From an uncultured Methanosarcinales archaeon (GTDB lineage Archaea; Nanobdellota; Nanobdellia; Woesearchaeales; CAXGTL01), in contig CAZHVK010000005.1 of the NCBI GenBank assembly GCA_964535955.1, forward strand, positions 124,001 to 147,787: DNA of 23,787 bases, in the 5' to 3' direction. Shown in pieces: positions 9,001 to 12,000 of this stretch. Every line of letters begins with the position of its first letter. Position 1 is the first letter of the stretch. Position numbers: made by a program.

Positions 9001-12000
9001 TTAATGTTTTGCCGAAACATATTTATACTACAAAGTTTATTTACAAATAGAGATGAAACCAGAACAAATGAAACAGATTCTTGCAACTGTTATTATTGTA
9101 GTTATAGGAGTATTTATTTTATATGCATTATTTCCATATATAAGTGCGTTTGCAGGAGCATTAGTATTATTTGTTTTATTATTTCCTATTAATAATTATC
9201 TGAGAAAGAAAATTGGTAAAAAGTTTTCTGCTTTATTATGTGTTTTATTGTCTATCTTAATTATTATTGTGCCTTTATTCTCTATATCAAATATGCTGAT
9301 TATAGAGGTTTCATCAATTGCTAAAGATACAGGGTTTGTAGAAGGAATGTTTGAAAAAATAGGCACACAAATAGATATTCAACAAAGTTTGTCTGAAATA
9401 TTAATATATGTTAAACAAGGAATAACAAAGTCTGTTAATTCATTTTTTGGTTCTGCAATTCATTTTGTTGTGTCATCAATAATCTTATTCTTTACATTGT
9501 TTTTTCTCTTGCTTAAACCAGATGAATTTATTAAAACAATACAAGAAAATCTTCCATTCAATTATAAAAATTCTAAAGAATTAATGGATGAATTTGTCAA
9601 TGTAACAAAATCAACTGTTATTGGAATGGGTTTAATAGCAATTGTGCAAGGTATATTGTTAGGACTAGGATTCTTTATATTTGGGATACAAGGAGCTGTA
9701 TTCTGGGGTTTTGTAGGAGCTGTGTTATCATTCTTGCCTGTTGTAGGTGTTACCTTTATTTGGGTTCCTGTATGTATGTACCAATTATTTGTTGGTAATG
9801 TTTTTGCTGGGATTGGCTTATTATTATGGGCATTAATAATTATAACTGGGTCTGAATATGTAATGAGACCTTATATATCAAAGAAAATAGCTAAATTGCA
9901 TCCATTGATTACTTTAATAGGTGTATTTATTGGACTGCCTTATTTTGGTATTTTTGGTATATTGGTTGGACCTTTGTTGCTTTCTTATCTGTTTTTATTA
10001 GCTAAGATGTATGGTGAAGAGTATTTGGGTTAGATTTATAAACTATTATTCCTACCCTAAATACAACATAGGAAACTGCTTAACTGACGGCACTATGTGC
10101 TGAAGAAAGTCCATCCACTGCTGGCAGAGTTTTTTAATGAAAACTTATGTCTTAAAATGCTACTCACTCAAGTGTCAGAAATCAAAGATTTCTGATCACG
10201 ATCATGAATCTTTGATTCATGACGTGAGATCCTTAATAGGATGGTAAAGGCTCAGAAACGGCACGGCCTTAAGAATGGAATGATGTGGTGAAGTTTCAGG
10301 TGACTGGAATGAGGCCCCACAGACGTCTCTTAAGGAAACGATGAAACGGCGATTCCTTAGCAAGTGAAAGTCAGAATGACGAATAGTAGAATGTTAAGAC
10401 AGCCTGTTCATGACAAGTTGTGAAGGCTGATAAAAGGTGGCTTACTGTTTCCTATGTTATTTTTTTATTTTATAGTTAAATATATAAATCAATTAATATT
10501 TTGATGTTAATATGGCAAGAGATAATAAAATGAGAATGCCTTCAGGCATGGGTGGCTTGGTAAGGTATTTTGATGATTATAAATCTAAAATAGAATTTAA
10601 ACCACAACATGTAATTATACTTGTGATAATTGTTTTAATAATTGAAATTATATTGCACTTATATGGCTATGGTTGGTTTGGATTGAATTAAGTCTTTCTA
10701 ATTATGACTCATACAGTAATCCCTAGTACAACAAATAATTCTGTACTTGATCTTGCTTTAGACACAATTGCAAAAGAAAAGCAAGCTCTTGTCTTTGTTA
10801 ATTCTAAAAGAAGTGCTGAAAAAACTGCAGAGGATTTATCGCGGCAGGTTAAAAATGTTGTATTAAATGAGTTAAGTGAGAAAATATTGCATGCTTTAAC
10901 AAAACCTACCAAACAATGCGAAAGATTAGCTAAGTGTATTAAAAATGGAATAGCATTTCATCATGCTGGTCTTGTTCATAAGCAGAAAGAGTTGATTGAA
11001 GATGAATTTCGAAGTGGGAAGGTTAAAGTAATTTGTTGCACACCTACTTTATGTTTATCTAAAGATACTAAAATATGGCATGAAATGTCTGAAACCAATG
11101 TGTCTAAGTTTCGAAATTCTAATCCACTTTTTGTGCTTTCCAAAACTGAGTTGGTCAGTATGAAATCACAAAAAGTTCAAAAGATTGAGAATTCCTCAAA
11201 ACTTATTCAGATTAGTTCAGTTTCTGGCTATTCAATAAAAGTAACTCCTAATCATAGGATACTCATCAAGAGAAATAAGAAAAAATTGATATTAGAAGCT
11301 AATAAAATTAAGAAAAGTGATAAAATAGCAACAATTGGTAAGCTAAATATTTCTAAGATGTTTATTCCAGCTATCAGTGACTTTGTTATTGACAATGAAG
11401 TGCCAATCTTTAATTATAAATTTGGCCCAAAATTATCTTATTTTATTGGAGCAATGTTGGGTGATGGTTATTCTGGAGCAGAAACAATAACTGATAAGAT
11501 AAAATATAAAGGATCACCAATGATTGTAGGAATTGACAAAGAAATATTTGAACATACAATTAGATTATGTAGGAAATTTAAATTAAATTGCAGAGAAACT
11601 AAATCACAACATGGTACTCCTCAACTTGTTTTAAGCAAAACTAAATGGTTTAGAGAATTTTTAGTAAGATGTGGTGTAGAAAAAGGTGAAAATAAGCACA
11701 TTTCTGAAAAATTAATTACAATGAGTTTAGAAAATACTTCATGGTTATTAAAAGGATTGTTTGATACAGATGGATGTGTAGAAAAATCAAGAAAAATAAG
11801 TTTTAGTAATATTTCAGAGAAGTTGATTAAACAAATGCAAAAATTATTACTTAGATATGAGATAGTAACTAGTATAAGAGTTAAACCAGCTTCAACTATG
11901 AAGATTTATGGAAAAGAATATAAAACTAAAAAACAATTTGAATTATTAATAACTAATAAGAAATGTATTCTTGATTTTTATAGGTATATTGGATTTAATT

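Follow-up and report, generated by a model that had tools for sequence, protein, structure and literature searches.

A palindromic double hairpin inserted in the RNase P RNA gene of a woesearchaeal archaeon is probably a small mobile DNA element

Introduction

Rickettsia and mitochondria have for decades been known to carry small palindromic repeats that enter genes without leaving a transposon scar, and, as far as we are aware, nobody knows how these repeats move. In the archaeal genome studied here (G000), a short double hairpin lies within the RNase P RNA gene, on a contig stretch of 23,787 nt that was analysed as a whole and is called the window below. This locus raises the question of what the double hairpin is and how it came to lie in the gene of an essential RNA. 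A first-pass annotation had described it as one copy of an unannotated family of about 40 repeats that behaves as an insertion. To address the question, the locus and its family were compared with three congeners (G001, G002 and G003) and with a sample of 201 genomes of the order.

Results

An insert in a hairpin of RNase P RNA

The host gene is the sole RNase P match in G000. It aligns to positions 1-288 of the Rfam model RNaseP_arch (cut-off 84 bits) and, as the first-pass annotation had stated, has 90 nt where a hairpin of the model has 8. The gene is 384 nt long, compared to 335, 338 and 335 nt in the congeners. An alignment with the genes of G001, G002 and G003 showed that these lack the element, and that a 60-nt stretch, composed of ACTCAAG, the element and a single T, takes the place of their hairpin loop (Table 1). 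Of the RNase P genes matched in 28 further genomes, none contains an element. RNA-library contigs from relatives (runs X1 and X2) bridge position 10165 to 10226 with TTTAAAGA between them. Splicing was rejected as an explanation of these contigs, as they belong to relatives and represent the allele without the element. In the RNA run search there were just two RNA runs with 4% of the sampled words, and four runs were used in the comparison that gave the relatives' contigs. Most likely, the RNA retains the insert, which would form a three-way extension on one of its peripheral hairpins.

The element reads TG TCAGAAATC-AAA-GATTTCTGA TCACGA TCATGAATC-TTT-GATTCATGA CG and is predicted to fold into two 9-bp hairpins, the loops of which are complementary to each other. 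For the 106-nt context, a folding energy of -27.7 kcal/mol was predicted (z -3.84), and 0 of 200 shuffled sequences were as stable. Since the G-type arm comes first, this copy is co-oriented with the RNase P RNA. The locus had been placed correctly before, with a span of 10173 to 10223 and a length of about 55 nt; the end has to be corrected to 10224, which makes this copy 52 nt long (52-55 nt for the miniature form of the family).

The unit of the family, TG-(TCARRAA...TTYYTGA)-CA, is a hairpin that pairs perfectly and stands on a foot of two bases. A whole element consists of two such units that abut foot to foot at CA/TG, with one additional base on each inner side and no spacer between the units. 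Of 78 parsed elements, 71 start with TG and end with CA. Terminal inverted repeats are present, the left one being TGTCA(G/A)(A/G)AA and the right one its complement ending in TGACA (TGTCAGAAA / TTTCTGACA). The earlier proposal that UGUCA and UGACA close the two hairpins did not hold: in the RNAalifold consensus each hairpin has a TG/CA pair of its own, with a bulged K or M, and this closure describes the family better than the RNA-style notation used before. In the RNase P copy, the pair formed by RNAalifold columns 36 and 63 is changed on both sides, from U-A to C-G. The same pair of changes in foot and centre is also found in copy C4:16529-16591.

Table 1. Features of the RNase P RNA locus, in window positions
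Feature	Position	Strand	Evidence
RNase P RNA gene, archaeal type (host)	10070..10453	+	Rfam RF00373, 103 bits
CTCAC, 5' strand of the host helix enclosing the insert; pairs with GTGAG at 10224-10228	10163..10167	+	Minimum-free-energy fold, sequence
60-nt stretch in place of the relatives' 8-nt hairpin loop (TAGGAATA, TTGAAATG, TTTAAAGA)	10166..10225	+	Alignment with G001-G003
Double-hairpin mini-element, 52 nt	10173..10224	+	Sequence; nhmmer 47.1 bits, E 1.8e-12; missing in G001-G003 RNase P genes
Left foot TG	10173..10174	+	Pairs with CA at 10197-10198 across bulged T 10196; RNAalifold columns 1-2 with 34-35
Hairpin 1, TCAGAAATC-AAA-GATTTCTGA, 9-bp stem	10175..10195	+	Sequence, fold, RNAalifold
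Centre TCACGA (family consensus KCATGM), with the junction CA/CG of the hairpin units	10196..10201	+	C at 10199 instead of the usual T
Hairpin 2, TCATGAATC-TTT-GATTCATGA, 9-bp stem	10202..10222	+	Sequence, fold, RNAalifold
Right foot CG (family consensus CA)	10223..10224	+	Pairs with CG at 10199-10200; RNAalifold

A repeat family with covarying stems

An nhmmer search of both strands of G000 gave 84 matches at E<=0.01. Merging these left 43 loci, which bears out the estimated copy number; the core and both arms could be parsed in 35 of them. A recount of the 15-nt core agreed with the earlier figure of 33 occurrences in G000, and the core occurs 11 times in G001, once in G002 and 15 times in G003. 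Across the order, it is present in 56 of the 201 sampled genomes (G123 and G134, flagged unpublished, among them), and the reversed control gave 0 matches in every genome. Beyond this sample, the core was mainly found in records with DPANN in their titles. The core, TGA-K-CATG-M-TCA, is shared together with its inverted arms by many families of the order.

The covariation of the hairpin stems that had been reported was confirmed in two ways. Within the stems of 58 short G000 arms, positions 4-9 were 98.2% Watson-Crick paired, compared to 66.0% after shuffling of the arms (sd 1.9, maximum 72.1; 1000 shuffles), and RNAalifold found changes on both sides at 7 of 20 pairs in 15 copies. Mismatches of the G:T type are about as rare in the stems as A:C.

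The length of family members ranges from 47 to 157 nt, with single arms of up to about 70 nt; the G000 copies are the miniature end of this longer family. Near-identical 157-nt copies were found at two loci of G174. Arms reassort from copy to copy, and self-insertions nested in elements occur. As the G000 copies are diverse among themselves, they do not establish recent activity in this genome. Of 85 strict TCA...TGA hairpins in G000, 67 fall within known loci, and no gene was found bracketed by split arms.

Empty sites and targets of insertion

Sites with and without the element could be compared in the RNase P genes of G001-G003, in the copies of a 122-nt repeat and of a second host repeat, in a HIT gene, in FtsY and at one intergenic site. 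These empty sites in paralogous repeats and congeners prove that the element was inserted and fix its ends. The 122-nt element is present in 11 uninserted and 9 inserted copies, where CTCACT/GGCC becomes CTCACT(TGTCA..TGACA)GGCC. As previously noted, five copies lie at one and the same site of this repeat and four in or beside its P2 loop. The inserted copies, which share site and orientation, belong to both host subfamilies and are interspersed with empty ones. For the second host repeat, 4 empty copies compare with 5 filled ones (TGATG/GCACAG), and the site of C1:173527 is empty in G002. The host repeats have diverged by at least 20%, while the stems of the elements stay perfect.

Protein-coding genes are entered as well. 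The HIT-domain protein is exactly 17 amino acids longer in G000 only. FtsY carries one insert in G003 and, in G000, the same insert with a 54-nt one nested in it, whereas G001 and G002 have none. Two insertions are in frame and add 17 or 18 codons. Many copies are positioned just upstream of start codons.

In eight comparisons of filled and empty sites, no target-site duplication was observed. Among 71 clean-ended elements, 11 have flanks that are identical over 2 nt and 1 has flanks identical over 4 nt. Both results agree with the first-pass annotation, in which no duplication had been evident. The left flanks vary (CACT, TACA, GATG, CAAG, AGTT, TAAA and others); no fixed tetra- or pentanucleotide precedes the element, and A is only weakly favoured at positions -1 and -3. 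Complementarity between the two flanks gave a mean run of 0.45, compared to 0.59 in shuffles. The flanks are therefore not mutually complementary, which argues against hairpin loops as the general target. Neither CATG nor GATC shows notable avoidance in the genome (observed/expected 0.85 and 0.83).

The element behaves as DNA rather than as an RNA gene

The orientation of the element agrees with transcription in 10 cases and opposes it in 3 in G000; in other genomes, 13 copies have the same and 11 the opposite orientation. With respect to GC skew, the orientation count is 17 of 29, which is not significant and hence gives no lagging-strand signature; with respect to gene-strand bias the count is 16 of 29. 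Rfam searches gave 0 matches at E<=1 on 9 loci of the long form. In the window, they gave only RNaseP_arch and a tRNA, and in 128.5 kb of sequence with further copies a single tRNA was the sole match, in line with the missing Rfam match noted before. A relaxed search for bulge-helix-bulge motifs recovers a control tRNA intron, which the strict version did not. Of the 12 element sites examined with it, 11 gave no match at their junctions, and the twelfth gave a single weak match, to the inner helix only. Without an excess of G-U pairs, a consistent orientation bias, a bulge-helix-bulge motif or an Rfam match, the family behaves as mobile DNA and not as an RNA gene, which points to palindromes that act at the DNA level rather than as RNA structure.

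Search for a mobilising enzyme

No driver was found in G000 among Y1 and TnpB transposition proteins, reverse transcriptases and tyrosine recombinases; DDE, IS110 and serine-recombinase families were outside this search. The first-pass annotation had likewise named no transposase partner. The Y1_Tnp domain (PF01797) had 0 matches in G000, which is 100% complete, and is also missing in G003, G012 and G002. The best TnpB match in G000 reached 17.1 bits (cut-off 26.3), and the best reverse transcriptase match (RVT_1) was sub-threshold at 18.6 bits. No multi-copy IS-like protein was found among the G000 proteins. Over the sample, a Y1 transposase is encoded in 20 of the 56 genomes that have the core and in 44 of the 145 that lack it (odds ratio about 1.3), so there is no association with the element. 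Two tyrosine recombinases were tested over the 201 genomes and neither tracks it; the Xer-like one is present in 130 genomes irrespective of the element, a tally that takes in the unpublished G114, G134 and G184.

Several candidates were rejected. A duplicated 5.6-kb segment on contig C25 carries the genes for MutL, a radical-SAM/HhH protein and a Xer-like recombinase. All three have housekeeping roles, and the segment perhaps originates from a second strain. In G174 and G077, the genes that lie between elements are likewise ordinary, namely ThyX, thymidylate kinase, dUTPase, an ATPase/DUF234 protein and a GTPase. Hairpins beside tnpA in G142, which might have been IS ends, are actually in-frame insertions into tnpA genes. 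No head-to-tail junction TGACATGTCA was found in G000, and scans of viral contigs gave 0 matches to the element.

Discussion

Interpretation and alternatives

We are rather confident that the element is mobile DNA, and the double hairpin is probably a non-autonomous, selfish element of this kind. Its patchy distribution over the sampled genomes also counts in favour of mobile DNA. A named special case of this explanation is transposition of the IS200/IS605 or REP/RAYT type, in which a Y1 (HUH) transposase would bind both hairpins on single-stranded DNA and move them by peel-and-paste. Such a system would account for hairpin ends, precise insertion, possibly precise excision and insertion without target-site duplication, and Y1_Tnp is common in the order (64 of 201 genomes, and 3 of 5 high-copy genomes tested). 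We nevertheless consider it unlikely, given that four genomes including G000 lack the domain, that TnpB is missing in G000 and that Y1 does not co-occur with the element. Additionally, no conserved tetranucleotide stands 5' of the element, the cuts lie at the hairpin feet and not at a distance, the strands are equivalent, and the tnpA genes of G142 are themselves hit.

Conservation of the core across the whole order could be read as a host function: the motif might be the binding site of a dimeric DNA- or RNA-binding protein, a Xer/dif-like recombination site (arms-6 bp-arms) or a transcript-stabilising hairpin, and would be kept by selection and simply spread by copying. The inverted arms shared by many families, the perfect stems within diverging host repeats and the copies directly upstream of start codons would fit. 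However, the core is missing in 145 of 201 genomes and matches only once in the congener G002, the Xer-like recombinase occurs regardless of the element, there is no orientation rule, and such a function is not plausible inside proteins and RNase P RNA, so that we give this reading a small chance. Spread via RNA, by which a transcribed double hairpin inserts into RNAs and is then copied back to DNA, seems very improbable. Transcribed sequence does contain copies (in RNase P RNA, other structured repeats, 5' leaders and coding regions), their orientation in G000 mostly agrees with transcription, and this route has been proposed for mitochondrial hairpin elements of Allomyces (PMC2800124, in the accessible part of the paper). 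On the other hand, G000 has no reverse transcriptase above cut-off, the orientation is almost balanced elsewhere, and both strands fold alike, with no excess of G:U-type pairs. That the element is a bulge-helix-bulge intron removed from RNase P RNA and other transcripts can hardly be correct: the tRNA gene of the window has a 56-nt intron itself, but the motif is missing at the 12 element sites searched except for the one weak match, although the control intron was recovered, and the flanks vary by site.

Returning to mobile DNA, insertion is precise, with no duplication of target bases and with low site specificity. Copies would persist only at places that can accommodate them, namely intergenic regions, loops or junctions of structured-RNA genes (RNase P RNA and the two other repeat families) and, if the insert has a length divisible by three, variable parts of proteins. 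The element probably moves as folded single-stranded or cruciform DNA, with precise cuts at the feet of the hairpins that would be made by a structure-specific enzyme acting in trans; we propose this specific hairpin-foot, single-strand mechanism tentatively. More speculatively, with a rather low probability, the TG-palindrome-CA unit is the substrate of an undescribed transposition route that cuts at the feet, leaves no duplication and uses no Y1, TnpB or reverse-transcriptase gene. The enzyme of such a route could be a new protein or a host replication or repair enzyme. If this holds true, mitochondrial double-hairpin elements and the Rickettsia palindromic elements might move by the same route, and the family, which has recent copies in G174 as well as dated insertions in G000 and G003, would be the first tractable example in a prokaryotic chromosome.

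The family offers an exactly defined unit with known cut points and insertions that are dated among close relatives. Since its members range in size from 47 to 157 nt, they reveal which parts an element can do without, and the occurrence of the family over hundreds of genomes gives a basis for seeking the partner enzyme. In a minimal archaeal genome, inserts of this kind are evidently tolerated by the gene of an essential ribozyme, RNase P RNA, and by the conserved FtsY and HIT hydrolase genes. Such inserts lengthen RNA genes and add peptides of 17-18 residues (SE...S(D/E)H(D/T)QKS..ISD), which annotators will misread.

Comparison with known systems

A literature search for archaeal double-hairpin elements or palindromic elements of Woesearchaeota gave nothing relevant. 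Among archaeal elements, the PATEs of haloarchaea, which derive from IS200/IS605, also have hairpin ends and are not known to cause target duplications. They differ from the family described here, which has symmetric ends, no fixed target tetranucleotide and no TnpA/TnpB in G000. MITE-Tracker, a program for finding MITEs, requires target-site duplications. Classical MITEs of Woesearchaeota share with our family the small size, the lack of coding capacity, hairpin formation, multiple copies, terminal inverted repeats and the archaeal group, but have target-site duplications of 7-9 bp, of which the double-hairpin family has none. According to the accessible part of their census (PMC11602168), it was made with MITE-Tracker. 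Such a census would not list the present family.

REP elements, too, are not known to cause target duplications. The REP/BIME/REPIN group resembles our family in its paired palindromic units and long persistence. REPINs consist of two inverted REPs and are regarded as non-autonomous elements (PMC3337134, PMC3116915). Their location is outside genes, and they rely on a Y1 transposase, RAYT, which is present as a single copy, whereas G000 lacks Y1_Tnp, its copies lie inside RNase P RNA, the HIT-protein gene and FtsY, and each unit is a complete hairpin.

We know of no transposase assigned to the Rickettsia palindromic elements. Interspersed between genes and in frame within proteins of a reduced genome, they spread in lineage-specific bursts, as far as the available text describes them (PMC1779305). 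The archaeal family is likewise palindromic and found both between genes and in frame in coding regions of a reduced genome. The Rickettsia elements are bacterial, 100-150 bp long and unrelated in sequence, and the strict two-unit TG...CA build and the insertion in RNase P RNA are particular to the archaeal family.

The mitochondrial double-hairpin elements (DHEs) of Allomyces, Schizosaccharomyces octosporus and S. osmophilus are short, consist of two consecutive hairpins and are regarded as mobile; they are mostly intergenic, are also found within rnl and rns, and are conserved across species (PMC10085805, accessible part). For the DHEs of Allomyces, flanking duplications are missing, which led to the suggestion that they spread via RNA (PMC2800124). 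Two adjacent stem-loops, the absence of flanking duplications and insertion also into structural RNA genes are thus shared, as judged from these partial sources. This likeness is one of description. The DHEs are G+C-rich and reside in an organelle, while the archaeal family is A+T-rich; in-frame insertions into proteins and a long form with 70-nt arms have been shown for the archaeal family only.

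Anatomy of the element family

The mini-element, a double hairpin inside the RNase P RNA gene of the window, belongs to a family that was searched for in the whole genome under study (G000). An nhmmer profile built from matches to its 15-nt core gave 84 matches on both strands at E<=0.01. These merged into 43 loci, 35 of which could be resolved into a core and its two arms, and there are 33 exact occurrences of the core TTCTGAKCATGMTCA. In an RNAalifold consensus fold of 15 copies, the unit of the family is a hairpin TG-[TCA...TGA]-CA; its foot of two bases is paired over a single bulged K or M. 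Two such units meet where CA abuts TG, giving the central KCATGM, and 7 of 20 pairs are changed on both sides. At stem positions 4-9 of 58 short arms, 98.2% were Watson-Crick, compared to 66.0% (at most 72.1%) after 5′ arms had been paired at random with 3′ arms of other copies. Strict TCA...TGA hairpins in G000 fall within family loci in 67 of 85 cases. Arms are also reassorted: the copy at C11:208 has the first arm of C15:4450 and the second arm of C9:26564. Self-nesting was seen three times at an identical arm position, where TCARA is followed by TGTCA (C4:42784, C10:32808 and locus L062).

Coordinates of the elements and their hosts
Feature	Location	Strand	Description
Mini-element	window 10173-10224	+	TG TCAGAAATC-AAA-GATTTCTGA TCACGA TCATGAATC-TTT-GATTCATGA CG (sequence)
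RNase P RNA gene	window 10070-10453	+	Rfam RNaseP_arch, 103 bits vs cut-off 84
tRNA gene with 56-nt intron in anticodon loop	window 6490-6614	-	Rfam 51.6 bits
Second structured repeat, G000	C9:34300-34500, C8:40633-40828, C17:4130-4297, C15:4435-4603		~150 nt
Second structured repeat, G000, further loci	C9:24094-24176, C8:47569-47640, C11:19107-19170, C1:108463-108527
HIT-domain protein gene with insert	C21:2055-3149		Pfam
FtsY gene with inserts	C4:42676-44481		elements in acidic N-terminal part
tnpA inserts, G142	L083 (G142:C42) 1454-1504; L086 (G142:C13) 113-215, 581-633		variant subfamily

The copy in the RNase P RNA gene

The host gene is the single RNase P match in G000 and carries 90 nt in place of the 8-nt hairpin tip of the Rfam model. 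With its surroundings, the mini-element is predicted to fold into two 9-bp hairpins within the host helix CUCAC/GUGAG (-27.7 kcal/mol, z -3.84, equalled by 0 of 200 shuffles). According to the bracket string, the invaded hairpin lies immediately 5′ of a GNRA-type hairpin; we take it to be P8 of the usual nomenclature. In the alignment, G000 has 60 nt where its congeners G001, G002 and G003 have CTACTC-(8 nt)-GAGATCC, and RNA-library contigs of relatives from two studies carry TTTAAAGA at the insertion site. The foot pair of unit 2 shows a double change from T-A to C-G, which is also found in the copy at C4:16529-16591.

Even without the mini-element this hairpin is long throughout the genus, with ~38 nt compared to 8 in the Rfam model (window 10130-10165; in G001-G003, RNase P genes L021, L028 and L027). 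Long RNase P RNAs occur in several further genomes of the order Woesearchaeales (401 nt in G012, 386 nt in G020), and no mini-element copies were found in such long RNAs of other genomes, these two included.

Filled and empty sites

Precise insertion with exact ends and without target duplication is proven. A target-site duplication was absent in all comparisons of filled and empty sites, namely RNase P, two host repeats, the intergenic site C1:173527 (filled in G000, empty in G002), and the genes for the HIT-domain protein and FtsY. The HIT-domain protein of G000, alone among the congeners, has 17 extra residues LSEAKASDHDQKSSISD that derive from a 51-nt element. In FtsY, G003 carries one element, G000 shares it and has a further, nested copy of 54 nt between TCAGA and AATC, and G001 and G002 carry none. 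Dating by orthology relies on these three congeners, with DNA identity of only 73-82%. Flanks were compared for 71 elements with clean TG...CA ends, taken from G000 and a little over 40 loci in other genomes: they agree over 2 nt in 11/71 and over 4 nt in 1/71, A is only weakly favoured, on both sides, at -1 and -3, and no complementarity was found between left and right flanks.

In the 122-nt repeat of G000, 11 copies are empty, with CTCACT running directly into GGCCTTACAGGC (or TGTC...GACA), and five are filled at one site, reading CTCACT[TGTCA...TGACA]GGCC. In three further copies the mini-element follows TTACA in the loop, in another it lies nearby, and the inserts have a single orientation in 9/9. 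In a tree of this host with inserts removed, built from short sequences and with weakly supported inner branches, the five same-site copies are spread over both host subfamilies (split support 0.97) and stand among empty copies. Either the element inserted repeatedly with specificity for site and orientation, or it inserted once long ago and was then excised exactly several times.

The second host, a repeat of ~150 nt, has four empty copies in which ...TGATG adjoins GCACAG, and five filled ones. This repeat is itself unannotated, with a closing helix CTCCATCCAAAAATCC / GGATATTTTGGATGGAG and a long inner hairpin; it has at least nine copies in G000, the five with a mini-element all at one site, and the scanned loci gave no Rfam match.

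Constraint on DNA or RNA

An RNA under selection would tolerate G-U on one strand only. Non-Watson-Crick stem positions in the family are few, with G:T vs A:C at about 4 vs 3 in G000 and 6 vs 3 elsewhere, which is no G:T excess. Relative to flanking or enclosing genes, 10 copies in G000 have the same and three the opposite orientation (one of the three doubtful), and the counts in other genomes are 13 and 11, a locus retrieved twice entering them a single time. The element itself matched no Rfam family at the loci scanned, and no bulge-helix-bulge was found at 11 of 12 element junction sites by a search that recovers the 56-nt tRNA intron of the window. We conclude that the constraint on the element is perfect palindromy of the DNA, and that the host merely tolerates the copies within its RNA genes as passengers.

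Orientation relative to GC skew gave 17/29. The skew in 30-kb windows of G000 is very strong, from +0.28 to -0.23 (e.g. C1:23000-53000, C10:18000-43000, C17:1-19000). The tRNA intron is not related to the mini-element; a relaxed bulge-helix-bulge, made up of an outer helix and one of 4 bp, can be formed at its junctions, and ARAGORN reported no tRNA in the whole window.

Distribution and long forms

Of 201 genomes sampled from the order, 56 contain the core and none contains the reversed control; without the unpublished G123 and G134, the count is 54/199. The richest genomes have 43, 42, 31, 30 and 22 cores, and among the congeners G001 has 11 and G002 one. Outside G000, arms are short (~20 nt) or long (~70 nt) in every combination, and the interior of long arms is conserved and contains CCACC...GGTGG sub-hairpins. 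Element lengths are 47-151 nt in G012 and ~157 nt in G174, where near-identical copies of that length lie at two loci. From this series of arm lengths it follows that the G000 copies are the miniature extreme of a family with larger members; what the miniature retains is the centre, the feet and the initial 7-8 pairs of the stem. A single hairpin unit may be the basic mobile module, because a long solo unit, TG-TCAAAAACCATC...GGTGGTTTTTGA-CA, exists without a partner in G077 (L129, G077:C23:18074-18143). Solo units are almost missing from G000.

Across 185,579 species genomes, the core-type pattern occurs in at least 122 stretches, and simple arithmetic gives ~35 expected chance matches. Among the 80 matches listed with titles, which are depositors' labels, hairpins ending TG...CA were present at 51 of 59 archaeal-titled vs 1 of 21 bacterial-titled loci. 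The archaeal titles among the matches listed were Woesearchaeota, Nanoarchaeota/Nanoarchaeia, one Pacearchaeota and 'uncultured Methanosarcinales archaeon'. Two scans of viral contigs gave 0 matches. In G077, two long-form elements in inverted orientation enclose a block of five genes including dUTPase, thymidylate kinase, ThyX and a nucleotide kinase-like protein (L133, G077:C52:3600-8300); the arrangement may be a composite mobile unit or may have arisen by chance.

Search for a mobilising enzyme, and possible mechanism

No driver of the element was found among the Y1, TnpB, reverse transcriptase, multi-copy proteins and tyrosine recombinases examined. In the G000 assembly, which is 100% complete in 31 contigs, there is neither a Y1 transposase nor an IS-like protein family with two or more copies, and the TnpB (17.1 bits) and reverse transcriptase (18.6 bits) domain hits are under cut-off. 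Y1_Tnp is present in 64/201 genomes of the order, 20 of the 56 core-positive and 44 of the 145 core-negative ones. The IS200-type tnpA transposase genes of G142 are themselves colonised by mini-elements: each has between one and three double-hairpin inserts, in frame and ~51 nt long, of a variant subfamily CACAGAAATC..GATTTCTGGGATGCCAAAAATC..GATTTTTGTG, which the homologue in G041 (L084) lacks. Of five tyrosine recombinases in G000, two are Xer-like, 69% identical and in housekeeping context, and their family is found in 130/201 genomes (including the unpublished G114, G134 and G184); a third is restricted to the genus and two core-negative genomes.

The whole contig C25 (5573 nt) is collinear with C7:957-6619 at 77-83% identity, with MutL, a radical-SAM/HhH protein and an Xer-like recombinase. 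This duplicated segment was considered as a mobile element and set aside, since housekeeping genes in two diverged copies suggest that C25 is a contig of a second related strain in the bin.

The element is probably mobile selfish DNA. Its unit is bounded by hairpin feet, its insertion is free of duplication, its arms reassort, it inserts into itself, and it occupies a paralogous host at the same site in the same orientation. The leading proposal for its movement, held with rather low confidence, is that folded DNA is cut at the hairpin feet by an enzyme supplied in trans. The element would travel as single-stranded or cruciform DNA and a structure-specific enzyme would make the cuts, perhaps one lost from G000, carried by an unbinned replicon, or belonging to the host. 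Selection would afterwards restrict insertions to tolerated places.

Comparison with known elements

REP/REPIN-RAYT systems and IS200/IS605-derived PATEs have hairpins, as does the G000 family, and no target duplication. Their defining transposase is missing from G000 and does not co-occur with the element. Classical MITEs, including those of Woesearchaeota, have target duplications, whereas the G000 family has none. MITE-Tracker requires target-site duplications. This program was used for the archaeal MITE census, as stated in PMC11602168. Rickettsia palindromic elements resemble the G000 family in that they invade protein genes in frame within a reduced genome, as described in PMC1779305. 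The closest in architecture and behaviour are the mitochondrial double-hairpin elements, which PMC10085805 describes as two adjacent hairpins, regarded as mobile and in some cases located within rnl or rns. For those of Allomyces, flanking duplications are described as absent, which prompted the authors to propose an RNA route (PMC2800124). Full-text searches of the literature for double-hairpin elements in archaea or palindromic repeats in Woesearchaeota returned nothing relevant. The family is real and apparently undescribed. It belongs with the scarless palindromic mini-repeats and has an unusually clean anatomy, and it has entered proteins as well as the gene of an essential ribozyme.
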